DNA from: a virus
Lineage: Duplodnaviria; Caudoviricetes
Direction: 5' to 3' (one strand)
IMG/VR virus record: IMGVR_UViG_3300024252_000005
Length of the DNA stretch: 64,000 nucleotides
Part shown: positions 37,950 to 62,468 of the stretch, in pieces
How positions within the stretch are numbered: position 1 is the stretch's first letter
Layout: each line of letters begins with the position of its first letter
The notes under the pieces: model-generated
Told to the model about the DNA's origin: nothing
What the model saw: only the letters and a program-made list of their open reading frames with translations
Database searches by the model: none
Made by a program: the position numbers and the translations under genes

Positions 37950-39325
37950 TGAGTCAAAAAAGAAACTTTGCCAAATTTGGTAAACCTTTTCAAGAAAAAG
38001 TATTTCAATCAATGATTACTGATACTACGTGGTCAGCTCAAATGATTGAAGTTGTCAACCCAGATTATTTTGATTTAAAATATCTTTCTTTCTTGTGCGA
38101 AAAATATTTTGCATATTACAATAAATACAAGACTTTTCCAACATTAACTATTTTAATTACAATAATCAAAGAAGATCTATCTAAGTCTAAGGACATTGTC
38201 CTAAGAGATCAGATTATTGAATTTCTTCATAGAATGAAATCAAATCCAGACGTTGGTGATTTGCAATATGTAAAAGATAAGTCATTAGACTTTTGTAAAA
38301 GGCAAGCTTTTAAAGATGCTTTAGAAAAAAGCGTTGAGCTCATACAAACTGAAAAGTATGAATCTGTCCTAGGCATCATGAAAGAAGCAATATCTGTTGG
38401 CATGCCCAATTCTACAGGTCACAACTTCTTTGATGATATAGAAGCTAGATTTGTACAGATTAACAGGCTTGTATGTCCGACAGGTCTAGAAAGATTAGAC
38501 GCAAAAGATATACTTCGAGGAGGATTAGGTAGAGGTGAACTTGGTGTTATAGCAGCAAATACAGGCGTAGGCAAGTCTCACTTCTTAGTAGACATGGGAT
38601 GTTCTGCTATGAGAGCAGGCAAAAATGTAATACACTATACTTTTGAGCTTTCTGAACATGAAACAGGCAAAAGATATGATTCTAATCTTTGCGATATTCC
38701 AAGCAATGAAGTTATAGAAAGAAAAAAAGAAGTTATTGACAAGTATAGTAAAATGGAGCTTGGTAAACTAGTCATTAAAGAATACCCAACAGGTTCTGCA
38801 ACAGTTCTTACTCTAAGGAATCATATTGAAAAACTAACTCTTAAAGGATTTAAACCAAGTCTTGTAACTGTAGATTACGCTGATGTAATGAAATCTTCAA
38901 GAGCATATGATTCTTTGCGGCATGAGCTAAAGCTTATCTATACAGAGCTTAGAAATCTTGCTGTTGATCTTAACATTCCAATTTGGACAGCATCTCAAGC
39001 TAATAAAGATTCTTCAAAAGCAGATGTTGTAGGCTTAGAAAACCTTGGCGAGTCATATGCTAAAGCACAAGTAGCTGACGTTGTATTGTCAATCAGCAGA
39101 AAGCCTATGGAAAAGTCAGAAGGAACTGGAAGAATATTTGTTGCAAAGAATAGAGCAGGCAGAGATGGTCTGTTATTTCCTATCAATATAGATACAGCAA
39201 AGTCAAAATTTAAAATATTAGACGATTCAGAACTAACATTAAACGAAGCTGTTAAACAAGATAACAACAGTATGAAAGAAAAACTTCGAGAGAAGTGGAA
39301 AGAAGTAAATCAAAAAGATGGTTAA
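37949..39325 (+). CDS. dnaB: Replicative helicase (DnaB / T4 gp41-like)
   Basis: Walker A ANTGVGKS, FELSE, VDYAD, TASQ, KNR.G; ATG overlaps the upstream stop. Confidence 0.9.
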   Translation: MSQKRNFAKFGKPFQEKVFQSMITDTTWSAQMIEVVNPDYFDLKYLSFLCEKYFAYYNKYKTFPTLTILITIIKEDLSKSKDIVLRDQIIEFLHRMKSNPDVGDLQYVKDKSLDFCKRQAFKDALEKSVELIQTEKYESVLGIMKEAISVGMPNSTGHNFFDDIEARFVQINRLVCPTGLERLDAKDILRGGLGRGELGVIAANTGVGKSHFLVDMGCSAMRAGKNVIHYTFELSEHETGKRYDSNLCDIPSNEVIERKKEVIDKYSKMELGKLVIKEYPTGSATVLTLRNHIEKLTLKGFKPSLVTVDYADVMKSSRAYDSLRHELKLIYTELRNLAVDLNIPIWTASQANKDSSKADVVGLENLGESYAKAQVADVVLSISRKPMEKSEGTGRIFVAKNRAGRDGLLFPINIDTAKSKFKILDDSELTLNEAVKQDNNSMKEKLREKWKEVNQKDG

Positions 39326-39791
39326 CATTTATTGTAACAAAGAGCTAGAAAAAACTTTATTTAATAATGACGTAAATGAATATGCGCCTGCTTATAATAG
39401 TGAATCTGCGGGATTAGATCTATACAATGCTTCAGACGATGTTGTTATAATGCCTCAAGATTTTGGCTATAGAGGAGAACTAATTAAAACTGGACTTCAT
39501 GTACTTGTCCCAAAAGGATATGTAGCTATAGTAAAAGAAAGAGGATCAATTACTAAGACACCTTTAAAGTGTAGAGCAGGCGTAGTTGATAGTGGTTATA
39601 CAGGAGAAATATTTGTAAATCTTGTAAACATTAGTAATCAAGAGTTTACAATTAAAAAAGATGGCAAACTTCCCGTTCAACTTGTTGTTGTTAAATGTGA
39701 CAATGAGTTTGACGTAATTGACGAAGAAGAATATTTAAAACTATCCCTTTCTTCTAGCAGGAAAGCCGGGAAAATAGGAAGTTCAGACTAA
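39318..39791 (+). CDS. dut: Trimeric dUTPase
   Basis: SAGLDL, RGS, GVVDSGYTGEI, QLV, GKIGSS motifs. Confidence 0.9.
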   Translation: MVNIYCNKELEKTLFNNDVNEYAPAYNSESAGLDLYNASDDVVIMPQDFGYRGELIKTGLHVLVPKGYVAIVKERGSITKTPLKCRAGVVDSGYTGEIFVNLVNISNQEFTIKKDGKLPVQLVVVKCDNEFDVIDEEEYLKLSLSSSRKAGKIGSSD

Positions 39792-39803: not shown

Positions 39804-41597
39804 GTGTTGAAAAAGTGCTATGGTATTAATATTAACTTAGAATTAGACAATAATCTTACAGATTTTTCAAAAAATCTACTAGAAAATTATTACATGGATG
39901 ACAATGAAAGCTCTCCACAGGAGAGTTTTGCTCGAGCCGCTGTAGCATTTTCAAATGACAATTTAGATCTAGCGCAAAGAATATACGATTACTCATCAAA
40001 TGGTTGGTTTATGTACTCCAGTCCAATACTATCTAATGCACCAAAAGAAAGTGAAAAATGTTTAGGGTTGCCTATTTCTTGCTTTCTTACATATGTTGAT
40101 GATTCTTTGGAAGGATTAATTGAACATTCTGATGAGCTTAGATGGATGAGCGTCAAAGGTGGAGGTGTAGGAGGACATTGGTCTAGCATAAGATCAAATA
40201 GTTCTATTTCGCCCGGGCCCATCCCTTTCCTTAAGACAGTTGATAGCGATATGACAGCATATCGACAAGGCAAAACAAGGAAAGGTTCTTACGCGGCTTA
40301 TATGGATGTATCTCATCCTGATATTATAGAGTTTTTAAATGTTAGAGTACCCACAGGAGGAGATGTCAATAGGAAATGCTTTAATCTTAATAATGCAATT
40401 AATGTTACAGACGAATTTATGAATGCTGTTGTTGAAGGAAAAGTGTGGAATCTTTTAGACCCTAATGATAAGTCTATAAGAGATACTGTTGGTGCTAGAG
40501 AACTTTGGCAAAGAATTCTAAAAATAAGATTTAGAACTGGAGAGCCTTATATTAATTTTATAGATGAAGCAAATAAGCGTCTTCCAGAATTTCAAAAAGA
40601 TTTGGGATTAAAAATTCATGGAAGTAATCTTTGCAATGAGGTCCATCTTGCAACTTCTTCTGAACGAAGTGCTGTTTGTTGTTTAAGCTCGCTTAATATT
40701 GAAAAATATGATGAGTGGAAAGATACTGAAATTGTTGAAGATCTAATAGAGTATCTAGATAATGTAATACAATTCTTTATTGATAACGCACCTGATCATC
40801 TTCAAAAGGCAAAATATTCTGCTTTTAGAGAAAGAAGTCTAGGCTTAGGTGCTATGGGATTTCATGCGTACTTGCAATTAAAAAATATTCCTTTTGAATC
40901 AGCGCTAGCAAAATCTATTAACATGAAGGTTTTTTCTCATATTCAAGCAAAAGCAAAACAAAAAACTAAGATTCTTGCTGAACTAAAAGGTGATTGTCCA
41001 GACGCTCAAGGCCTAGGTATTAGAAATGCACATCTTTTGGCAATAGCTCCTAATGCAAATTCTTCTATAATTATAGGAACAAGTCCTTCTATAGAACCAT
41101 GGAAATCGAATGCGTATACACATAGAACAAGAGTAGGATCTTATCTTGTTAAGAATCCGCGCTTAGAAAAAGTATTATCTGAATATGCTGAAAAGAAATC
41201 AAGCGATAAATCTGAACAAAAAAGATTTATTGCAAAAACTTGGAAGTCAATTATTTTAAATGAAGGATCTGTGCAACATTTAGAGTGGATGTCTGATTGG
41301 CACAAGAATGTTTATAAGACAGCATTCGAACTAGATCAAAGGTGGATAGTAGATCATGCAGGAGATAGACAACAATTCATTTGTCAGGGGCAAAGTGTTA
41401 ATCTATTTTTTCCAGCTGGAACAAACAAGTCATATGTTAATGCAGTTCATTTGAGAGCTTGGAAAAAGAAACTAAAAGGCTTATACTACTTAAGAACAAA
41501 CTCTGGTGCAGCAGCAGAAAAAGTTAGTCAAAAAGTAGAGCAAAATAAACTAAAAGACTTTATTGATGACGATGACTGTTTAAGCTGTCAAGGTTAA
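39804..41597 (+). CDS. nrdA: Class Ia ribonucleotide reductase alpha subunit (compact, no obvious ATP cone)
   Basis: PISCF, GSNLCNE, CCLSS, APNANSS, LYY, terminal CLSCQG. Confidence 0.93.
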   Translation: MLKKCYGININLELDNNLTDFSKNLLENYYMDDNESSPQESFARAAVAFSNDNLDLAQRIYDYSSNGWFMYSSPILSNAPKESEKCLGLPISCFLTYVDDSLEGLIEHSDELRWMSVKGGGVGGHWSSIRSNSSISPGPIPFLKTVDSDMTAYRQGKTRKGSYAAYMDVSHPDIIEFLNVRVPTGGDVNRKCFNLNNAINVTDEFMNAVVEGKVWNLLDPNDKSIRDTVGARELWQRILKIRFRTGEPYINFIDEANKRLPEFQKDLGLKIHGSNLCNEVHLATSSERSAVCCLSSLNIEKYDEWKDTEIVEDLIEYLDNVIQFFIDNAPDHLQKAKYSAFRERSLGLGAMGFHAYLQLKNIPFESALAKSINMKVFSHIQAKAKQKTKILAELKGDCPDAQGLGIRNAHLLAIAPNANSSIIIGTSPSIEPWKSNAYTHRTRVGSYLVKNPRLEKVLSEYAEKKSSDKSEQKRFIAKTWKSIILNEGSVQHLEWMSDWHKNVYKTAFELDQRWIVDHAGDRQQFICQGQSVNLFFPAGTNKSYVNAVHLRAWKKKLKGLYYLRTNSGAAAEKVSQKVEQNKLKDFIDDDDCLSCQG

Positions 41598-42271
41598 ATA
41601 TTTTTTATTTTTTCTAAATATTCTTCTTTTGACATTGTTATCTCTATAGGATTTTTTTCTATTCTATAACCTTCAAACTTTAAATCTTTTCTAGAGTTAC
41701 ATAGTTCTTCTATATTTGTTAGGTTTGTTGTACTATCTTCCCATATACATACTTTTTTAATTGTAGGATGATCGTCTAATACTTTAGATATTTTGTCAAC
41801 TTTAAACTTTGCAGTATCTCTATCATCAGGCTGAAGAAAATATTTGTCTTTGTCAAAAGTCAAATTAACATTGTCCATCATTTCTTTTATATGATCTTTC
41901 AAAACGACTTCTCTTCCCGTACAAAACATATTGTATACATAGCTTTTACTTTGAGATTCAATTGCAGAAAGCAAAACGTCTTTTTTCCAAAGACCAGAGC
42001 TTAATGTCGGGTTTTTATTCATAAAAGGAGGACCAAGGCTTTGTGGACTAGTATCCCAGTCTTCGTTTATCTCATGAGATCTAACTGGAGGATTATCTTG
42101 ATCCCACATCATATATACATCGTAATCTTCGTACCACCATTTAGGTGGGTAAGGACTTCTAAAAAGAGTGTCATCAAAGTCATACATATGCAATTCAGTA
42201 TACTCAGATTCTCCTTCATTAATAAATCTTTGCCAAGATTCGAATAAAACTCGATAATCTTTATTTTTCAT
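41594..42271 (-). CDS. HAD-superfamily hydrolase
   Basis: Motif I DFDDTLF, CTGR, K.DKI, WEDS. Confidence 0.75.
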   Translation of the reverse strand: MKNKDYRVLFESWQRFINEGESEYTELHMYDFDDTLFRSPYPPKWWYEDYDVYMMWDQDNPPVRSHEINEDWDTSPQSLGPPFMNKNPTLSSGLWKKDVLLSAIESQSKSYVYNMFCTGREVVLKDHIKEMMDNVNLTFDKDKYFLQPDDRDTAKFKVDKISKVLDDHPTIKKVCIWEDSTTNLTNIEELCNSRKDLKFEGYRIEKNPIEITMSKEEYLEKIKNI

Positions 42272-47060: not shown

Positions 47061-47774
47061 ATGGAAAAGGTTGGAAATTTAGTGAAAAAAAAATATTTAT
47101 ATGCTGACAATATTGGTTTTTTAGATCTAGTGCAATATATGGGAGAAGATATAACTGTAGTAAACTCTGCTAGAGTATCTTTTGGAGTTCAAAAATCAGA
47201 AATTGATAGCAAAGACAAAAAGTTAATTAACTATTTAGTTAAACACAAACATACTTCTACATTAGAACATAATATTGTAACGTTTAGAATCAAAGTTCCT
47301 TTGTTTGTAAGAAGCCAGCATCATAGACACAGAACATGGTCATACAATGAAATATCTAGAAGATATACAGACTATAATATAGAATTTTATACTCCAAAAA
47401 GTTTTAGAACTCAGCATAAAACAAATAGACAAGCATCTAGCTCTGAAGATTTGATTGATCCTAAAGTATATTTAAGTAGCTGGAGTGGCGAAGCAAAAGT
47501 ATCAGAGCTGTATAAAGAGCATTGTAGAGAATCTTTAGACTTATTTAATAATTTTGTTGAATCAGGTGTCTGTAAAGAGCAAGCAAGAGGAATTTTGCCA
47601 CAAACAATGTACACAGAATACTATGCAACAGCAAATCTAAATAATGTTCTCAAGTTTATAGAGCTTAGAACGCATGAAGGAGCACAATGGGAGATTCAAC
47701 AGCTAGCAATTAAAATGCTAGATATCATTAAAGAGCTTTGGCCAATTACAGTTGAAAGTTATATTAATAAATAA
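47061..47774 (+). CDS. thyX: Flavin-dependent thymidylate synthase
   Basis: RVS, HTSTLEH, RHRTWSYNEISRRY, ARGILP, AQWEI. Confidence 0.95.
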   Translation: MEKVGNLVKKKYLYADNIGFLDLVQYMGEDITVVNSARVSFGVQKSEIDSKDKKLINYLVKHKHTSTLEHNIVTFRIKVPLFVRSQHHRHRTWSYNEISRRYTDYNIEFYTPKSFRTQHKTNRQASSSEDLIDPKVYLSSWSGEAKVSELYKEHCRESLDLFNNFVESGVCKEQARGILPQTMYTEYYATANLNNVLKFIELRTHEGAQWEIQQLAIKMLDIIKELWPITVESYINK

Positions 47775-48201: not shown

Positions 48202-48426
48202 ATGAAATTACATGATACAGCAATAGCTCAAATAGCAAAAATTGTACAAATGGCAATATTAACAGGAACAGACATAGTTGACCATTTAAGGATGGTCGAA
48301 TTAGAAGTAAATAAAGATGGCTTATTGAAGCTTGAGAAAGAGTATAAAGAAATATTTGACAATAGCATTGAAAAAATGTTAACTAATGTAAACTCTCAAA
48401 GCAAAGAAGAAGAAGATGAGCACTGA
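48202..48426 (+). CDS. Hypothetical small protein
   Basis: AGGA SD; coupled to the downstream pyrophosphatase gene. Confidence 0.7.
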   Translation: MKLHDTAIAQIAKIVQMAILTGTDIVDHLRMVELEVNKDGLLKLEKEYKEIFDNSIEKMLTNVNSQSKEEEDEH

Positions 48427-48793
48427 TAAGCTTAGAGATGTTTTCTGTAAAAGAGAAAGCTTCATGCTTTTAATAAAAGAAAAGTACCCAGAGACATATA
48501 CATCTTGGCCTGTTGATATAAGCGAAAAAAATAGTCAAGTAATAATCAGAGAAACAGCACTTAAAGGTGTTGAAGAAATGTTTGAAGCTTTAGGGCATTT
48601 AAAAAACTGGAAGCCTCATAGGGAAACAGATGTGCCCGAAATTAATAGAGAAGAATTCCTAGAAGAAATAGTTGATGCATTTAACTACTTCTTTTCTCTA
48701 ATGATTTTAATGGGTGTAGACGTTGATGAATTTTATAATGCATTTAATGCTAAGGACAATATAATTAGAAGGAGATTACAAAAAGGTTACTAG
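48416..48793 (+). CDS. All-alpha NTP pyrophosphatase (MazG / dimeric dUTPase-dCTPase-like)
   Basis: EEMFEA, WKPH, EEIVDAFNY, K..I...R...GY pattern. Confidence 0.75.
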   Translation: MSTDKLRDVFCKRESFMLLIKEKYPETYTSWPVDISEKNSQVIIRETALKGVEEMFEALGHLKNWKPHRETDVPEINREEFLEEIVDAFNYFFSLMILMGVDVDEFYNAFNAKDNIIRRRLQKGY

Positions 48794-48795
48794 TT

Positions 48796-49446
48796 ATGTT
48801 TTTATTTGAAGATCTGAAGTTTTATACAAACGAACATTTCAGATCTTCAAGCTATATAACAGAAGCTTGGGACAAAATAGAAAGCATGCTTTTGTTTTAC
48901 TTGGGAATGCTCAATGATATTAACATTTCAATAATAATAGACTCAAAATCTATTTACTTTACTCTAACTTCTAATTTCAAAACTTACACGAGTATAAGTA
49001 AAAGTATATCTTCTAGTCATTGTTTAAGCCTGTGTGTAGACTTTTATACTGAAATTGATATTGATATTGATACAAATTGCAAGGATTTTTCTTGTAATAT
49101 TATGAAGAGTAATTTTTTCTATAGCGGGAAAAGAAAAGATGAAGGCGTTGTAGAGTTTAATGGGAACTTTTGTTTTAAACTCAAAGACTACTGTAGATTT
49201 AAGAAAATAATATTCACAAATTTATCAAGAGAAATACAATATGCAATACATAAAAACATATTCTATCTAGATATTGAAAAAGATTACAGATCAGAAATTG
49301 ATGCTGAATTTGAGTCTATTCAAGCATACATGTTATTTGATAAGTCTATTGAAAAAGCTAAAGCTTGTCTTACAAGTAATAACATTATACAGGAAAAAAA
49401 CATAAAAATTATTGAAACATTAAAGGATTTAATAAATGAAGAGTAA
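48796..49446 (+). CDS. Hypothetical protein
   Basis: ORF track; tightly packed, AT-rich. Confidence 0.6.
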   Translation: MFLFEDLKFYTNEHFRSSSYITEAWDKIESMLLFYLGMLNDINISIIIDSKSIYFTLTSNFKTYTSISKSISSSHCLSLCVDFYTEIDIDIDTNCKDFSCNIMKSNFFYSGKRKDEGVVEFNGNFCFKLKDYCRFKKIIFTNLSREIQYAIHKNIFYLDIEKDYRSEIDAEFESIQAYMLFDKSIEKAKACLTSNNIIQEKNIKIIETLKDLINEE

Positions 49447-49867
49447 AGTAAATTTAAAAAAAGTATACGACATGCTTTTTGAAGTATCTAATGAAGATGA
49501 TAAAAATAGTGACCTATCTAATTTACACATGTCAGTAAGTGACATGCTAGAAAGAGCTTCGAAAACTCCTACAAATTGGGCTGATATATTTCAAGCAGTA
49601 GAAGCGTTTAGAAACGATCTTTTGAGCGATGACAGACAAGACTCATCTGCTACAGAAGCTCAAATGGGATTAGTTGTCCCATTAATAGCGTATTTCGTTC
49701 TTGTTCTCGAGACAGATGTAGTAGCTTTCCCAAACGAAACAAGAATATTTATAAATTTAATAAAAGACAACTTCAGTTCAGAAAGGCAAGTAGACAAGCT
49801 AAAACATTTTTTAAATGTTCTCCACCCGGGAAAATTTAAAAAATCTATTGATTATTCTGACGTGTAA
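49436..49867 (+). CDS. Hypothetical protein
   Basis: AAGGA SD; overlaps the upstream stop. Confidence 0.6.
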   Translation: MKSKVNLKKVYDMLFEVSNEDDKNSDLSNLHMSVSDMLERASKTPTNWADIFQAVEAFRNDLLSDDRQDSSATEAQMGLVVPLIAYFVLVLETDVVAFPNETRIFINLIKDNFSSERQVDKLKHFLNVLHPGKFKKSIDYSDV

Positions 49868-49890
49868 ATTTAATTCTATTGTATTATAAT
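49861..49890 (+). promoter_or_regulatory. Sigma70-like promoter CGTGTAAATT...TATAAT
   Basis: TGTAAA 49863-49868, 16-nt spacer, TATAAT 49885-49890. Confidence 0.7.
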
Positions 49891-49919
49891 AAAAAGTAAT
49901 ACAAACAAGGAGGAATTAA

Positions 49920-50900
49920 TTGCCTATTAATAATAATTTAGAACCAGTGACATTGCCTATGGATCTTAAGTTTAATCAAGATCCAAAAACTGATTTTATC
50001 AATAATCTTGAGTCATTAAAGATTGAAGTTATTGATGCGCCTACAAGAGCTCAAGCGCAGAAGATCGCATGGAATATGACTAAAGCTACTTGGGCAGATA
50101 TACCTTCTGAAACTAGTTTTGAAACAGCAGGTTATCTAGAAGCATCAAAGAACCTGCAAGATGTTTTGAACTTTAAAGCTTTACCGACGCCAATGGAATG
50201 TTTAGGCTTCACGTTCAAGATTAGCGGTATTGATACACAGACTGTTACACATCTTATTAGGCATAGAGCAGGATCATTTGCAGCACAATGTACTGGTGAT
50301 AGAGATCTAAGGTATGATAATGCACTAGTGCCAGAATCAATTGAAAACTGTAACAAAGTAGGTGATGAATTAGACTTCTATTTTAGATATATTAACATTG
50401 TAAATGAATCAAAAAAATTATATTCTGAAATGGTTGATTCAAAAATTGTTTCAATGATGGACGCTAGAGTTATACTTCCAAAGTGTATGGAGACTTTTTA
50501 CATTGCAAGATTCAATCTAAAAGACTTGATTGGCTTTATTAAACAGCGCCAAGACGTTCAAATTCAACCTGAAGTTGACAATATTCTTGCAACACGAATT
50601 GCAAGACTAGTAGTTGAGAGAATCCCAGAAGTAGCAACATGTCTAGACTTTGGCAAGCCTGATATGCATTATGTAAGAACTTTTCGTGTAGAACAAACTG
50701 ACGGTTCGTTTACTTCCAAGGGAACAAATTTATATTACCCAGAGCCTAAAAATGATTTGTTTGAATTTAACGAAAATGACTCTATTTACAGCTGTAGAAG
50801 AGAAGAAATTAACGGTAGAAGTGATAAAGATGAAAAAATATTTACAAGAATGTGGAACGAAGATGTTAGTTACATCAACACAATTAAGGAGAAGTTTTAA
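49920..50900 (+). CDS. Divergent ThyX-family flavoenzyme
   Basis: TTG start with GGAGG SD; FTFKISGI, HLIRHRAGSFAAQCTGDR, ARVILP, NLKDLI.F..QR. Confidence 0.8.
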   Translation: MPINNNLEPVTLPMDLKFNQDPKTDFINNLESLKIEVIDAPTRAQAQKIAWNMTKATWADIPSETSFETAGYLEASKNLQDVLNFKALPTPMECLGFTFKISGIDTQTVTHLIRHRAGSFAAQCTGDRDLRYDNALVPESIENCNKVGDELDFYFRYINIVNESKKLYSEMVDSKIVSMMDARVILPKCMETFYIARFNLKDLIGFIKQRQDVQIQPEVDNILATRIARLVVERIPEVATCLDFGKPDMHYVRTFRVEQTDGSFTSKGTNLYYPEPKNDLFEFNENDSIYSCRREEINGRSDKDEKIFTRMWNEDVSYINTIKEKF

Positions 50901-50903
50901 TAT

Positions 50904-51350
50904 ATGAAAGTTTATTTAGCTAGTGGTTGGTTTAATCCTGAACAGGCAGAAGAATTGACAATGCTTGAAAACATATTTGACAACAGATCAGATCATTTTG
51001 AATTAGCATCACCAAGAAGGATATTTGTTTGTCCTCCGAATGCTCCCAAAGAAGTTCAAGATGAAACTTTTGAAGGAAATCTATTTCATATTAAGACGGC
51101 TGACTTTTTACTTGTCAACACAAGAGACAAAGATATTGGTACTATTTGGGAAGCTGGATATGCTTACGCTTCCAATAAACCAATCGTATACTTTTGTGCT
51201 GGTTTGCCGTATGGCGCTAAATTTAATTTAATGCTAGCAAGAAGTGGAATTAAAGTATGCACTTCTTTTGAAGAGTTAGAAGAATATTTGGGTAGAGTAA
51301 TAGAAACAAAATGTTTACCTTTAGAACCTTATGACAAGTCAATTGAATAA
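50904..51350 (+). CDS. Nucleoside 2-deoxyribosyltransferase / nucleotide N-glycosidase family protein
   Basis: KVYLAS.WF, I..AD, DIGTIWEAGYA, FNLM. Confidence 0.8.
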   Translation: MKVYLASGWFNPEQAEELTMLENIFDNRSDHFELASPRRIFVCPPNAPKEVQDETFEGNLFHIKTADFLLVNTRDKDIGTIWEAGYAYASNKPIVYFCAGLPYGAKFNLMLARSGIKVCTSFEELEEYLGRVIETKCLPLEPYDKSIE

Positions 51351-51615
51351 AAAATTCTGGACATTTAAAGATACTAGCAACTACAACTATATAAAAGAAA
51401 ATGATTTTTATATATTGGGTAAACCCGATGTGCATAGATTGTTTAAATTTAAAAGATCATTCTTGCTAGAAGTAAATATTAATGGAGAAAATCATTACGT
51501 AATACCTATTAAGTTTGTATCTAGAGAATTTCCTAAAGGTCATTATGTAGGTGTCGGTGAATTAAAAGAAAGAAGAATTTCTTTTGCAGACAATGATATA
51601 AAAAATGTTTTCTAA
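51331..51615 (+). CDS. Hypothetical protein
   Basis: ORF overlapping both neighbours in an operon. Confidence 0.5.
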   Translation: MTSQLNKKFWTFKDTSNYNYIKENDFYILGKPDVHRLFKFKRSFLLEVNINGENHYVIPIKFVSREFPKGHYVGVGELKERRISFADNDIKNVF

Positions 51616-51823
51616 AAAAACAAAAAGAACTATAATTATGAATTTAAAATTAGAAAAGATATATAAAAACTGGACTATTCATAACTTTGTTGGTCATCCT
51701 TTAATGCAGTTTTTATATATAATTAATATGAATCAAGCAGCTAAGAATGTTCATGACAAAACACTCCCAATCATTGAAGTAAAAAACAAAACAAAACATG
51801 TCAATATTGACGATAAAGAGTAG
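51605..51823 (+). CDS. Hypothetical protein
   Basis: ORF; WTIHNFVGHPLMQ core. Confidence 0.5.
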   Translation: MFSKKTKRTIIMNLKLEKIYKNWTIHNFVGHPLMQFLYIINMNQAAKNVHDKTLPIIEVKNKTKHVNIDDKE

Positions 51824-51828
51824 TTATT

Positions 51829-52041
51829 TTGCTCAGCAAAATAAAAGTAAATGATTTAATAAACTTTAGACTTATAGTTGACGAAAAAGATAAAAACATT
51901 GGTTTGGTTTGCAAAGTACAAAGAGATTTTAATTTCTACAACATGATAACAATATTTGCAAAAAACAAAGTTGTGTTAATACCTGAGACTTTGATTGAAT
52001 ATAGAATTTTACAAAAGAAAAAAAGGAAACAATGCGAATAG
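51829..52041 (+). CDS. Hypothetical protein
   Basis: TTG-start ORF filling the gap before the epimerase. Confidence 0.4.
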   Translation: MLSKIKVNDLINFRLIVDEKDKNIGLVCKVQRDFNFYNMITIFAKNKVVLIPETLIEYRILQKKKRKQCE

Positions 52042-53018
52042 GAATAACTGGGGAAAAAGGTTTTATTGCTAGGAACTTATCAAAGCTTATACAAACATCT
52101 AATCACGAGTTTGTATCTCTAGATAGCTCTAGTTTTGCCAATGAAAACATGATATACACACATAACAACGAAGTTTGTGTATATAGCAATACTATAAAAG
52201 ACTGGGTTGACTTATTTGATGAAGAAAATATTGACGTTGTAGTACATAATGCAGCTGTAGTTGGAACAGATGTTGTGGCGCTCAATCCAGAGGCTGCAGT
52301 TAATACAAATGTTTTAGGCACAAAGATAATTACAGAAGCTGCCAACATTTCAGGTCTACTCAACGTTTATTTTGGAACAACTGTTATATATGACACTTAT
52401 GTTTATCAAGATTCGGATATTGTTGAAACAAGTAGCATATTCCCTAGAACAGATTATGCTATTCAGAAATACGCAGGAGAAATGATTGTAAGGAGTAACG
52501 CAAAAGAGTGGTTAGTTGTGAGGCCTTTGTTTGCTTATGGCGGAGAAGGTGACATGAATTCTTTGATTGCAAAGTCTTTGTTTGCAATCAAAAACAATAT
52601 AAAAAATATTGACATGTTTCTCAATCCTGAAAAAATTAAAGATTATATGCATGTAGAAGACTTCTGCACTAACGTATTAAAACTCGTTAACTCAAAAGTT
52701 AGAAACCAAGATTTTAATATCACAGCTAGTAATCCTTATAATACTCTAGAAATCATCGGTTTAATTGAAGAAGTTTCAGAAGCTAGTTTAGAAAATATAG
52801 TTAATTGGCATCCTGAAACTGATTACTTGGGCAATCATAGACTTTCAAATAAAAAATACTTGCAGTTTATGGAAACTTCAAAGTCTAGATCACTTAAAGA
52901 AGGCATTAGAGACTCATGGCGCTCAATCAAGAATGCTGATAGCGAGTATAATCCTTTGAAATATTTAGATGAAGCAAAAGACAAAGGCATTGATCTAAAA
53001 GATTTTTTTCCTAAATAA
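52032..53018 (+). CDS. NAD-dependent NDP-sugar epimerase/dehydratase (extended SDR)
   Basis: GITGEKGFIA, VVHNAA, YAIQK (YxxxK), R...AYG, KDYMHVED. Confidence 0.9.
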   Translation: MRIGITGEKGFIARNLSKLIQTSNHEFVSLDSSSFANENMIYTHNNEVCVYSNTIKDWVDLFDEENIDVVVHNAAVVGTDVVALNPEAAVNTNVLGTKIITEAANISGLLNVYFGTTVIYDTYVYQDSDIVETSSIFPRTDYAIQKYAGEMIVRSNAKEWLVVRPLFAYGGEGDMNSLIAKSLFAIKNNIKNIDMFLNPEKIKDYMHVEDFCTNVLKLVNSKVRNQDFNITASNPYNTLEIIGLIEEVSEASLENIVNWHPETDYLGNHRLSNKKYLQFMETSKSRSLKEGIRDSWRSIKNADSEYNPLKYLDEAKDKGIDLKDFFPK

Positions 53019-53081: not shown

Positions 53082-53846
53082 ATGCCAAGAAAGACGACTT
53101 TAGTAGAACTAACATGTAGTCATTGCAAAATAAAATATAAAAAGCATATGTCTAAATCTTTAAATTCTAAGTTTTGTTCTAGAAATTGCAAAGATGATTC
53201 AAGCAAGAAAAGAGAGAAAAAAGAGTGTTTAAGCTGCAAAACTTTATTTGAAACAAATAGAAACCAAGTTTATTGTAAAAGAGAATGCTACATTAAAGAA
53301 AACAAAATAAAGAGAGTTAGCTTAAATTGTCAATTTTGTGGTAAAGATTACGAAAAGCCTGAGACCAATATTACTAAGTATTGCGGAAAAGAATGTCAAA
53401 ATAAAGCACAAAGTAGTGGCTTAAAAGAAATACCTTCTAATGGAAGAATGGGATTTAGATATGATTTACCAAAAAACTATTTTTTCAAATCTTCTCTAGA
53501 AGCTGACTATGCAAGATGGTGTGAGTTTACAAATAAACCTTACATTTATGAACACAAAACATTTACAGTTCAATATGAAGGAAGGGAAAAGCACTATACA
53601 CCAGACTTCTACCACCCAGATGAAGACAGGTACGTAGAGTTAAAAGCAATAAGAAGAGATAGAAAGTTTAATTCAAATTTGCTAGCTGCTGACTTGTTAA
53701 AAATTGATGGTGTCAATATTGATGTATTATTAATGCATGAGTTTTATACACAAATAAAGCAGAGCAATCACTACTGGCTTATTGAAAACATTGAAAACAA
53801 AAATTACAATGGAACAAGACACCTTATATATCTTAAAAAACATTGA
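53082..53846 (+). CDS. Zinc-ribbon-repeat PD-(D/E)xK endonuclease (putative homing endonuclease A)
   Basis: Repeated CxxC...FCSxxC units; YTPDFY...YVELK catalytic core. Confidence 0.75.
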   Translation: MPRKTTLVELTCSHCKIKYKKHMSKSLNSKFCSRNCKDDSSKKREKKECLSCKTLFETNRNQVYCKRECYIKENKIKRVSLNCQFCGKDYEKPETNITKYCGKECQNKAQSSGLKEIPSNGRMGFRYDLPKNYFFKSSLEADYARWCEFTNKPYIYEHKTFTVQYEGREKHYTPDFYHPDEDRYVELKAIRRDRKFNSNLLAADLLKIDGVNIDVLLMHEFYTQIKQSNHYWLIENIENKNYNGTRHLIYLKKH

Positions 53847-61507: not shown

Positions 61508-62468
61508 TATATTTACCCAAGAAAACCTGCCCGGAAGCGATTATATGGAAGAGAAAGATTACCTCAAAAAAATTTCTTGCAAAAATTGTAATCTAGATTT
61601 TGTAATAAATTTCAAAATGTCAGACCAAGGTTCTATTGCAAAGTGTAACAGATTGTATTGCAGTAACAAGTGTAAAAAAGTGTATCTTAAAAAGAATGGT
61701 TCGAAAAGTTCTATAAAACTTAGATGTAAACATTGCAGCAATGTTTATTTTAAACCAAAGTCACTTTCAATTAACTCAAAATTTTGTAGTAGGATTTGTC
61801 AAAATAGAAGTTACGCAAATGAAAATCAAAAAGATAGAAAACAAATCAATTGTAAAGTTTGTGACAAAGTTCTTTCTGTTATAGAAGGCTCTAAAAGAAA
61901 ATATTGCAGCCATAAATGCAGTCATTTAGGTCAAAAAGGTAATACAAAAATATTTGAATGTGCTGTTTGTAAACAAGAGAAAGTTATATTGGAAAATGAC
62001 AATAGAACTTATTGCGGTAGAAATTGTCAATATAAAGCGCAGTCGTTAGGTATGATAAAAATACCAACAAAAGGTAGAAGCGGTTATAGAATAGACTTGC
62101 CTGCTACGATGTATTTTAAAAGTGCACTTGAAGCAGATTACGCTAGATATTTAAAATTTCTTAATATTAGCTTTAAGTATGAATGCAAGTGTTTTGAATT
62201 AGATGACAGTGGCAAGAAAAGAAGATACACACCAGACTTTTATATAGACAAAGAAGATATGTTTGTTGAAATGAAAGCTGGCAGGAAAGATAAAAAGTTC
62301 TCTAAGAATTTAGAGTGCGTGCAATTAGTAAAAAACTGTGGTTATAATATAAAAGTGATATACATGTCTGAATTTTATGACATGCTTAAAAAAGAAAACT
62401 TATATGAGGAGATTCCAAACATTGAAAGACGAAATTACAAAAAAACAAAACGCCTTATACGAGATTGA
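61500..62468 (+). CDS. Zinc-ribbon-repeat PD-(D/E)xK endonuclease (putative homing endonuclease B) between the dnaE halves
   Basis: CxxC/FCSxxC repeats; YTPDFY...FVEMK; paralogue of 53082..53846. Confidence 0.8.
   Translation: MHDIFTQENLPGSDYMEEKDYLKKISCKNCNLDFVINFKMSDQGSIAKCNRLYCSNKCKKVYLKKNGSKSSIKLRCKHCSNVYFKPKSLSINSKFCSRICQNRSYANENQKDRKQINCKVCDKVLSVIEGSKRKYCSHKCSHLGQKGNTKIFECAVCKQEKVILENDNRTYCGRNCQYKAQSLGMIKIPTKGRSGYRIDLPATMYFKSALEADYARYLKFLNISFKYECKCFELDDSGKKRRYTPDFYIDKEDMFVEMKAGRKDKKFSKNLECVQLVKNCGYNIKVIYMSEFYDMLKKENLYEEIPNIERRNYKKTKRLIRD

Follow-up and report, generated by a model that had tools for sequence, protein, structure and literature searches.

A marine jumbo phage known from IMG/VR virus record IMGVR_UViG_3300024252_000005 (Duplodnaviria; Caudoviricetes) encodes two ThyX-type proteins. 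One (ThyX1) is a canonical ThyX, and the evidence supports the view that the other (ThyX2) is a neofunctionalised ThyX-fold enzyme and not a second ordinary ThyX. The window, i.e. the whole 64,000-nucleotide stretch of this record that was analysed, also places the ThyX2 gene beside genes for a nucleoside 2-deoxyribosyltransferase (NDT) and an all-alpha nucleoside triphosphate pyrophosphohydrolase (NTP-PPase). We propose that these genes form a module that supplies phage DNA with a 5-substituted pyrimidine deoxynucleotide made on a ThyX scaffold, and we put the probability of this reading a little below one half (about 45%). What was observed is the fold of ThyX2, its motif changes, its clade, its gene neighbourhoods and its coexistence with other thymidylate synthases (TS).

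The window is AT-rich, at about 32% GC (range about 30-35%). The stretch is present in assembled contigs from seawater metagenomes of many studies, and a 255-kb contig carries a protein identical to ThyX2.

ThyX2 has a ThyX fold and a rewired active site

The two ThyX-type genes of the window are:
47061-47774, + strand: canonical ThyX (ThyX1), motif RHRTWSYNEISRRY; Pfam Thy1 E 9e-53, TIGR02170 174.9 bits (cut-off 87.9)
49920-50900, + strand: ThyX2, 326 amino acids, TTG start with an AAGGAGG Shine-Dalgarno; Thy1 E 1.9e-18 over residues 74-237

ThyX2 scores 67.4 bits on Pfam Thy1 (gathering threshold 24.8) and, at 48.8 bits, falls below the TIGR02170 thyX equivalog cut-off that ThyX1 passes. Its AlphaFold model, built on 86 family members, has a pLDDT of 95.9 and the ThyX fold, and Foldseek pairs it with Thermotoga maritima ThyX at a probability of 1.00 and a TM of 0.76 (by target). 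Residues 33-238 superpose on the ThyX structures of T. maritima, Mycobacterium tuberculosis and PolB. Compared with these, ThyX2 has about 30 additional residues at the N terminus and about 90 at the C terminus, the C-terminal part being without counterpart in those structures. The signature of ThyX2 reads RHRAGSFAAQCTGDR and its AQWEI region reads RQDVQIQPEV. Sequence, Thy1 match and model thus bear out an earlier annotation of this DNA (the sequence-only reading), which had recognised a second ThyX-fold protein by this signature and by IQPEV.

Residue equivalences were taken from a profile alignment to the sequences of solved ThyX proteins (M. tuberculosis and T. maritima). From T. maritima ThyX to ThyX2 they are:
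Retained: R78/H79/R80 to R114/H115/R116; E58 to E93; R147 to R183; R174 to R210
Replaced: E86 to A122; S88 to C124; G89 to T125; R90 to G126; Y91 to D127; H53 to L88

With ThyX (EC 2.1.1.148; TM0449 and the M. tuberculosis enzyme), ThyX2 therefore shares the fold, the Thy1 match, the RHR, the first Ser, the Glu of the LEH region and the equivalents of R147 and R174, whereas Ser-Gly-Arg-Tyr has become Cys-Thr-Gly-Asp, the folate-stacking His has become Leu and AQWEI has become IQPEV. It differs further in its terminal extensions, its TIGR02170 score, its separate clade and the canonical TS alongside it. Within the full signature RHRxxSxxxxSxR(Y), the RHR and the first Ser are present, and the later Ser, Arg and Tyr are Cys124, Gly126 and Asp127; R128 is also present in the motif region. 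R114, R116, R183 and R210, the equivalents of residues that bind the phosphate and O2 of deoxyuridine monophosphate (dUMP) and activate its base, are invariant or near-invariant in the 86 family members.

S88 and Y91 are critical in ThyX and strictly conserved; R90, likewise conserved, tunes Y91, and R174 activates dUMP (PMC8316439, PMC11940539). In PolB, the residue equivalent to R90 binds both the phosphate and the pyrimidine O4, and O2 is bound by the one equivalent to R174 (PMC5003785). Set against these published roles, the pattern of retention and replacement indicates that ThyX2 keeps what holds a pyrimidine monophosphate on the flavin, while the residues predicted to drive methylene transfer and to read position 4 of the base are replaced. 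The His53 of T. maritima ThyX, which Koehn et al. are said to have reported in 2012 to stack on folate, corresponds to Leu88 of ThyX2, and the clade consensus there is L/M-P/W...E.

The ThyX2 clade is separate from canonical ThyX

A maximum-likelihood tree built from 97 ThyX-like proteins of phage contigs places those with C-[TS]-[GA]-D in one group (support 100/98), apart from canonical ThyX, among which ThyX1 falls. Phylogeny and structure prediction, which had been put forward as the way to check the paralogue, thus set it apart in a clade of its own while confirming its fold. Exact RHRAGSFAAQCTGDR was found in 120 of the 120 closest relatives listed (77-100% identity), which argues that the rewired motif is not due to chance. 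The Cys-bearing signature singled out by the earlier annotation therefore holds among close relatives, although not as an invariant of the wider family.

More than 1000 near relatives of ThyX2 (77-93% identity) come from marine metagenomes, and a search of 1.84 billion representatives gave only 422 clusters at E < 1e-3. Across 185,579 prokaryote species, each represented by one genome, the motif-bearing subfamily had six hits, all on contigs of metagenome-assembled genomes (MAGs). The C-[TS]-[GA]-D clade is apparently restricted to phages, being found on phage or phage-like contigs only. Among GenBank phages, the DNA of the 6.1-kb block has no match, and a full-length protein relative is found in Geobacillus phage GR1 only.

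A second non-canonical ThyX-like clade was also seen, in which Gly-Gly-Arg-Asp (Asn in L154) replaces Ser-x-Arg-Tyr and the motif reads ..QHGGRD... Its IMG/VR loci (L110, L115, L126, L132, L135, L139, L141, L144, L146, L152, L154, L157, L168 and L170) form their own supported group in the tree, inside a larger group (99/98) shared with the ThyX2 clade, and an NDT is nearby in none of the 14. Separately, the metagenomic ThyX2-family protein P0151 (515 amino acids) has an HNH/His-Me endonuclease domain in its C-terminal half; a homing endonuclease may have been fused to it or have invaded it.

ThyX2 coexists with other thymidylate synthases

ThyX2 and a canonical ThyX occur together in the marine genomes G001, G003 and G004. 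In three further marine loci (L004, L034 and L056), ThyX2 is accompanied by ThyA and dihydrofolate reductase (DHFR), which lie at the position otherwise taken by ThyX. Both ThyX types are also present in G007, an unrelated complete 96-kb phage. At least two lineages, the marine jumbo phages and that of G007, thus have ThyX2 in addition to ThyX or ThyA, which makes a role as a spare synthase of deoxythymidine monophosphate (dTMP) improbable.

Two other observations concern these loci. In L004 (11103-16831), an adenylosuccinate lyase, an adenylosuccinate synthetase homologue and IMPDH are encoded a few kb downstream of ThyX2-NDT; the synthetase may be of the PurA or the PurZ (2-aminoadenine) type. 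In three lineages, a short open reading frame (ORF) of 170-190 amino acids directly downstream of the ThyX2-type gene matches only the middle of the ThyA family (PF00303, 23-29 bits) and looks like a ThyA fragment or minimal domain (L101:7022-7540, L104:7038-7550, L179:6999-7565).

The gene block around ThyX2

The ThyX2 gene is part of a nucleotide-supply block that spans 37.9-53 kb. The first part of the block encodes DnaB, a trimeric dUTPase, the large and small subunits of ribonucleotide reductase (RNR), a HAD protein, Nudix, ClpP and an amidase. In the second part, all on the + strand, ThyX1 is followed by two small ORFs, the MazG/dUTPase_2-like gene, two ORFs of unknown function, ThyX2, NDT, three small ORFs and an extended short-chain dehydrogenase/reductase (SDR). 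Besides ThyX1 and ThyX2, the features discussed here are:
39318-39791, + strand: trimeric dUTPase (PF00692, E 2.5e-13)
48202-48426, + strand: 74-residue protein (p74), no family found; overlaps the MazG-like gene by 11 nt
48416-48793, + strand: all-alpha NTP pyrophosphohydrolase, MazG/dUTPase_2/PRA-PH-like (phrog_12184, E 2.6e-15)
48796-49867, + strand: two ORFs without assigned function (216 and 143 amino acids; p216 and p143), no family match
49868-49919, + strand: intergenic gap of 52 nt with TATAAT and the AAGGAGG Shine-Dalgarno before the TTG start; candidate promoter
50904-51350, + strand: NDT (PF05014, E 1.5e-12)
51331-52041, + strand: three small overlapping ORFs (94, 72 and 70 amino acids), function unassigned; one matches phrog_36447 (unknown function)
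52032-53018, + strand: extended SDR of the NDP-sugar epimerase/dehydratase type (PF01370, E 1.3e-26; phrog_540, E 3.7e-42)

Family matches confirm the identities and coordinates that the earlier annotation had given for ThyX1, dUTPase, ThyX2, NDT, SDR and NTP-PPase. From 49920 to 53018, all genes run in one direction and either overlap or are separated by no more than 5 nt, and this tight spacing makes them look like one operon. The same annotation had also given the ThyX2 operon a promoter of its own. A TATAAT is indeed present in the gap, but a promoter scan found 30 sites against 33 expected from shuffled sequence, with no terminator, and this claim was therefore dropped. Family and Atlas searches with p74, p216 and p143 gave no useful match. 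In marine relatives, p74 is always directly upstream of the MazG-like gene, at every locus with room for it, and the three small ORFs between NDT and SDR are kept in only part of these phages.

NDT and the pyrophosphatase accompany ThyX2 in unrelated phages

The NDT gene starts 3 nt past the ThyX2 stop codon. Its product scores 48.1 bits on PF05014 (threshold 28.8), and its best solved relative is the bacterial N-deoxyribosyltransferase 6evs (E 4e-10). Among 83 marine loci, all 80 with enough sequence carry NDT about 1 kb downstream of ThyX2, and NDT is directly upstream of ThyX2 in all six MAG contigs, which had been fetched by ThyX2 motifs only. NDT is directly upstream of ThyX2 also in GR1, a family-B polymerase phage (L085), an SPbeta-like phage (L087), the P0125 contig and the Pam3-like phages with family-A polymerase (L086, L096-98 and L105). 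Outside the marine clade, NDT is within 5 kb in 8 of the 17 clade loci with room, compared with 2 of 39 loci with other ThyX types (Fisher p = 5e-4; these counts are not phylogenetically independent).

The NTP-PPase of the window falls in the dUTPase_2/MazG/PRA-PH clusters of the Atlas (dUTPase_2/MazG scores 0.99-0.91), and its EExxE...ExxD metal-binding motif reads EEMFE...EEIVD. It reaches only 16.8 bits on Pfam PRA-PH (cut-off 21.3) and has no solved-structure match. Since the window already has a trimeric dUTPase, removal of dUTP is covered. The gene is present in every marine locus with room, with an orthologue 65% identical in L002. All-alpha NTP-PPase genes also adjoin ThyX2-type genes in L086, L107, L109 and L181; in GR1, such a gene is found 4.8 kb downstream of ThyX2. 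These neighbourhoods support a tie of ThyX2 to NDT and the all-alpha NTP-PPase across unrelated phages. Of the four genes whose co-occurrence had been suggested as a check, ThyX2, NDT and NTP-PPase thus recur together, whereas the SDR is variable and missing from several relatives.

NDT-fold enzymes act either on nucleosides or on nucleotides, and the residues of the window NDT point to the former. In an alignment to 1f8x and 9gn4, its D67, D76, E82 and N108 correspond to D72, D92, E98 and N123 of L. leichmannii NDT. Kaminski and Labesse reportedly described in 2013 that the N-glycosidases of NDT fold that act on deoxynucleoside monophosphates (dNMPs), namely DNPH1/Rcl, MilB and BlsM, have Ser in place of the transferase Asp92 and Asn123. 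This replacement leaves room for the 5'-phosphate; the window NDT retains Asp76 and Asn108. No DNPH1 or MilB chain was among its solved-structure matches. With the catalytic Glu and the Asp/Asp/Asn kept, the window NDT looks like a base-swapping transferase acting on nucleosides, which fits a nucleotidase before it and a kinase after it. These residues weaken the analogy to MilA/MilB that the sequence-only reading had drawn, as they are of the deoxynucleoside-transferase type and not of the MilB/BlsM/DNPH1 N-glycosidase type.

Nucleotidases, kinases and other neighbours

A 5'-deoxynucleotidase is as regular a partner of ThyX2 as NDT. HD/YfbR-like genes lie beside ThyX2 in L179, L181, L182, L183, L184, L087 and the P0125 contig; GR1 has one upstream, no more than 4 kb away. 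In about half of the marine phages, NT5C, which is unrelated to HD/YfbR, is directly upstream of ThyX2, in the place where the window has its 143-residue ORF. That the same activity, in two folds, occupies the same place argues that the nucleotidase belongs to the module. The 143-residue ORF shows no similarity to the NT5C of L002; the two occur together in some relatives (e.g. L020), and the presence of either varies among marine loci. A HAD-family phosphatase (HAD_SAK_1, E 1.3e-9) is encoded at 41594-42271 on the - strand of the window, between the RNR subunit genes. It might substitute for the 5'-nucleotidase that is absent beside ThyX2.

Tmk-like kinase genes adjoin ThyX2 in L085, L107, L178 and L183; in GR1 the kinase gene is about 1.2 kb upstream, and in L179 it is fused to NDT. 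Thymidine kinase (TK) was found in all four genomes tested (GR1 and three marine genomes), and dCMP deaminase in the marine genomes tested. In general, the module genes belong to blocks for replication and nucleotide supply, with DNA polymerases, primases and RNR encoded alongside.

Several other genes were noted near ThyX2. Fpg/Nei adjoins NDT in many marine relatives (e.g. L002:9674-10471), with none in the window, and genes of the uracil-DNA glycosylase (UDG) superfamily are next to or near ThyX2 in L111 (7015-7608) and L178 (8899-9492). In L178 (10183-14477), the ThyX2, Tmk-like and UDG genes are followed by two radical-SAM genes and a ferredoxin/DHO_dh-like gene, which may be a further tailoring set. 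In GR1, a nitroreductase-family flavin oxidoreductase is encoded directly upstream of ThyX2 (L001:8286-8885); a protein of this type could reduce the ThyX2 flavin.

Sugar genes are accessory to the module

The window SDR has both GxxGxxG and YxxxK and scores 94 bits on PF01370, and it lies far below all NCBIfam equivalog cut-offs (e.g. 75 vs 365 for dTDP-glucose 4,6-dehydratase). In the unrelated L101, the gene immediately before ThyX2 encodes an SDR (E 9e-51). In marine relatives the distance of the SDR gene from ThyX2 ranges from +1.4 to +7.6 kb, and the gene is absent within 8 kb in several with room. The complete marine genome G003 has no SDR near ThyX2, no GT1 or GT2 family gene and no glycosyltransferase of the type found in GR1.

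The GR1 cluster holds a glycosyltransferase of phrog_2888 ('alpha-glucosyltransferase'; E 6e-53) with no match in Pfam or among solved structures. It is homologous to two glycosyltransferases of Bacillus phage G, which flank genes for a thymidylate kinase, a dCMP deaminase, a sugar-1-phosphate nucleotidyltransferase and a ThyA homologue. In the latter, an Asp aligns with the Asn that we take to be base-specifying in thymidylate synthases. A link of the GR1 protein to DNA glucosyltransferases is suggested by the PHROG naming, the homology to phage G gp313 and a weak match to T4-like a-gt. A GT2 match fused to ThyX2 in the MAG protein P0134 is a hint only, being sub-threshold (22.1 vs 23.3 bits), and this part shows no similarity to the GR1 glycosyltransferase. 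The sugar genes, both SDR and glycosyltransferase, are accessory to the module, but L101, GR1 and P0134 show that some link of ThyX2 to sugar remains.

Two paralogous 254-residue proteins, 42% identical and with HNH-endonuclease-like PHROG matches, are encoded at 53082-53846 and 61713-62459. One directly follows the SDR gene; they are possibly homing endonucleases.

A proposed pathway and its relation to known systems

We infer the chemistry step by step, from the substrate to the product and what becomes of it in DNA, as follows. The MazG-like pyrophosphatase would convert a canonical deoxynucleoside triphosphate (dNTP) to the dNMP, and the 5'-deoxynucleotidase (NT5C or HD/YfbR, in relatives) would convert dNMPs to deoxynucleosides. 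NDT would swap bases, e.g. from deoxythymidine and uracil to deoxyuridine and thymine, and TK would re-phosphorylate the base-swapped deoxynucleoside. In this way, the unwanted canonical nucleotide would be removed and its deoxyribose recycled towards the ThyX2 substrate. ThyX2 would act on a pyrimidine dNMP at its C5/C6 edge while the nucleotide is stacked on reduced flavin, with Cys124 as a Michael nucleophile or acid and Asp127 standing in for the Arg-Tyr pair. It would give a product other than dTMP, the likeliest being a 5-hydroxymethyl or 5-methyl derivative of dUMP or dCMP (deoxycytidine monophosphate). This product would then be phosphorylated, as Tmk-like kinases could do in other lineages, and built into phage DNA, with sugar decoration in some lineages (by way of the GR1 glycosyltransferase or the SDR of the window). 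A narrower version seems doubtful to us as a whole, though worth stating: that the clade is flavin-dependent and Cys-using, makes a 5-substituted pyrimidine dNMP (hydroxymethyl- or methyl-dCMP, or hydroxymethyl-dUMP) and is coupled to a 'base-swap' loop of NDT and nucleotidase.

Phage T4 replaces a pyrimidine by means of the gp56 dCTPase, the gp42 dCMP hydroxymethylase, the gp1 kinase and glucosyltransferases, and the phages of SPO1 type, with hydroxymethyluracil in their DNA, use a dTTPase, a dTMP nucleotidase, a dUMP hydroxymethylase and a hydroxymethyl-dUMP kinase. The partner set of ThyX2 (NTP-PPase, TS-like modifier, dNMP kinase, nucleotidase and sometimes a glycosyltransferase) matches these pathways, which favours a module for 5-substituted pyrimidines, and a canonical TS is retained as in T4. 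The window itself has a TS-superfamily modifier distinct from the housekeeping TS together with a dNTP pyrophosphatase, an arrangement conserved in relatives. In contrast, the T4 and SPO1 pathways use a ThyA-fold modifier and are not known to include an NDT, whereas the ThyX2 module has the ThyX fold and a near-constant NDT. The modification pathway that the sequence-only reading had envisaged is partly supported, by the neofunctionalised ThyX2, the co-occurrence of NDT and NTP-PPase, the coexistence with ThyX or with ThyA and DHFR, and the logic of the pathway, but its sugar-nucleotide component is not central.

Bacillus phage SP-15, in whose DNA much of the thymine is replaced by glucosylated dihydroxypentyl-uracil (PMC5977210), resembles the window in having a canonical-like Thy1 protein (gp9, encoded next to a deoxynucleoside kinase) and a divergent Thy1 protein clustered with NDT and SDR (gp127-gp130). 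The divergent gp130 is encoded two genes downstream of NDT, with the SDR between, and the authors of the SP-15 study proposed it as the hydroxymethyl-dUMP synthase, as a published hypothesis and not a result (PMC5977210). Unlike ThyX2, gp130 is without the RHR and scores 26 bits on Thy1, and the SP-15 SDR is a classical short-chain and not an extended one. Membership of gp130 in the ThyX2 clade was considered and rejected (hhalign probability 11%, no alignment with the clade).

Two further systems are instructive. DmtZ, the NDT-family enzyme of 2-aminoadenine (Z) phages, acts on dAMP (PMC12884076); it removes a canonical nucleotide and redirects deoxyribose to a non-canonical base, a role like that proposed for the NDT of the window. 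The closest structures to DmtZ are DNPH1 and MilB, whereas those to the window NDT are the bacterial nucleoside transferases 6evs and 1f8x, and its Asp and Asn are kept. PolB and SVIThyX2, which methylate UMP in polyoxin biosynthesis, are, like ThyX2, neofunctionalised second ThyX proteins beside a housekeeping ThyX, indicating that the scaffold can change substrate (PMC5003785). Unlike ThyX2, which has lost those residues, PolB keeps Ser96-Ala97-Arg98-Tyr99; it is also bacterial, gives a methyl product and belongs to an antibiotic gene cluster.

A literature search for a module of ThyX-like protein and NDT found no paper describing the clade or the NDT pairing. The kind of system, PolB, the SP-15 hypothesis, DmtZ and the 5-hydroxy-dCMP synthases are known; the ThyX scaffold and the proposed loop of NDT and nucleotidase are not.

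Uracil or cytosine as the substrate of ThyX2

Whether uracil or cytosine is the base on which ThyX2 would act is a question on which the sequence evidence is split. Uracil would suit the retention of R210, the nucleotidase in the module, the UDG neighbours in L111 and L178 and the SP-15 parallel, and also the dUTPase, dCMP deaminase and TK, all of which feed dUMP. Cytosine would suit the loss of the O4-binding Arg, the new Asp adjoining it and the Cys that occupies the former nucleophile position; ThyA-fold dCMP enzymes have a comparable change from Asn to Asp. It would also suit the retention of a canonical TS as in T4, and the relatives of the GR1 glycosyltransferase that stand beside a cytosine-type ThyA homologue.

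Evidence against the proposal and alternative readings

Several points weigh against the proposed pyrimidine-modification module. The dedicated dNMP kinase of the T4 and SPO1 pathways is missing from the window, as are P-loop kinase genes in general, NT5C, Fpg, ThyA and DHFR, all of which were searched for, and no kinase (including any Walker-A protein), nucleotidase or glycosyltransferase was found near the module there. About half of the more distant clade members are without NDT nearby. In some distant family members, the place of the ThyX2 Cys is taken by G, T, A or S, and the existence of a structure of the T. maritima S88C mutant (3g4c) implies that Ser to Cys alone need not abolish TS activity. 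Since gp130 lies outside the clade, the SP-15 parallel is one of analogy or convergent context, not orthology. Finally, ThyX2-bearing phages assemble readily from ordinary metagenomes, which argues against a very bulky hypermodification.

The coexistence data also have another side. In GR1 (complete) and G008 (99% complete), the ThyX2 type is the sole TS-family gene, with no ThyA, which would equally fit a genuine dTMP synthase. ThyX2 could then be divergent in sequence but not in function, working in a salvage line with NTP-PPase, 5'-deoxynucleotidase, NDT and TK that would turn any host deoxynucleotide into deoxyuridine, dUMP and dTMP to feed a genome of 68% AT, following the logic of the deoxycytidine/YfbR route of E. 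coli. This would agree with the retained phosphate-binding and dUMP-activating arginines, with the presence of TK, dCMP deaminase and dUTPase, with the true nucleoside-transferase residues of NDT and with the AT-richness of the window. However, throughout the clade the critical S-x-R-Y triad (PMC8316439) has given way to other residues, the folate-stacking His is gone, the protein fails the thyX equivalog cut-off, and marine jumbo phages and G007 keep it, strongly constrained, alongside a canonical ThyX or ThyA. Moreover, adjacent dedicated Tmk-like kinases would be unnecessary for dTMP. We consider a salvage role of this kind unlikely, at perhaps one chance in four.

The replacement of the folate-stacking His by Leu or Met across the clade also raises the question of whether ThyX2 transfers a folate carbon at all, or uses its flavin for other pyrimidine chemistry. 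It might carry out an O2-dependent 5-hydroxylation, oxidise dTMP to a species with an exocyclic methylene, to be trapped by water as 5-hydroxymethyl-dUMP, or reduce C5=C6 with the Cys as proton donor (compare dihydroorotate dehydrogenases and dihydrouridine synthases). A flavin with a catalytic Cys is the hallmark of enzymes for pyrimidine C5=C6 redox chemistry. The nitroreductase-type flavin reductase directly upstream of GR1 ThyX2 and the Fpg/Nei or UDG genes beside the module in many relatives would fit such a role, and the TS superfamily offers a precedent for a switch to flavin hydroxylation in the flavin-using ThyA-fold 5-hydroxy-dCMP synthases (PMC13326640). Against this, the H53A mutant of T. 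maritima ThyX retains folate binding, according to the title of PDB 4gtf, so that loss of the His is no proof of lost folate use, and the idea is purely inferential. It is distinctly improbable in our estimate.

The recurring trio of ThyX2, 5'-deoxynucleotidase and NDT, run in that order (modification of a (d)NMP, removal of the phosphate, release of the base), would end in a free modified base or nucleoside that could serve as antimetabolite, signal or decoy, as in the MilA/MilB or PolB pathways, and PolB is itself a ThyX paralogue in nucleoside antibiotic synthesis (PMC5003785); but this is very improbable, since NDT keeps the transferase Asp and Asn and not the Ser of dNMP N-glycosidases, the genes lie inside replication and nucleotide-supply blocks by DNA polymerases, primases and RNR, the adjacent Tmk-like kinases and NTP-PPases point to dNTP supply, and no export or tailoring genes were seen.

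Implications

All pathways known to us by which phages modify pyrimidines from the nucleotide pool onwards use a ThyA-fold enzyme. If the proposed pyrimidine-modification module is real, the ThyX fold would be a second, independent solution with a different cofactor chemistry (flavin, and perhaps a covalent Cys), opening a route to modified DNA pyrimidines that is independent of ThyA-type hydroxymethylases. It would provide new enzymes for making modified nucleotides and would explain why many phages keep an NDT. Because a cultured member of the clade exists (Geobacillus phage GR1), the idea is directly testable. Abundant ocean phages, together with phages of the gut, the rumen and thermophiles, would be likely carriers of modified DNA, which would bear on evasion of restriction and CRISPR and on sequencing bias in viromes. 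Since ocean metagenomes are rich in the ThyX2 family, a large part of the DNA of marine jumbo phages would then contain a modified pyrimidine that has so far escaped notice.

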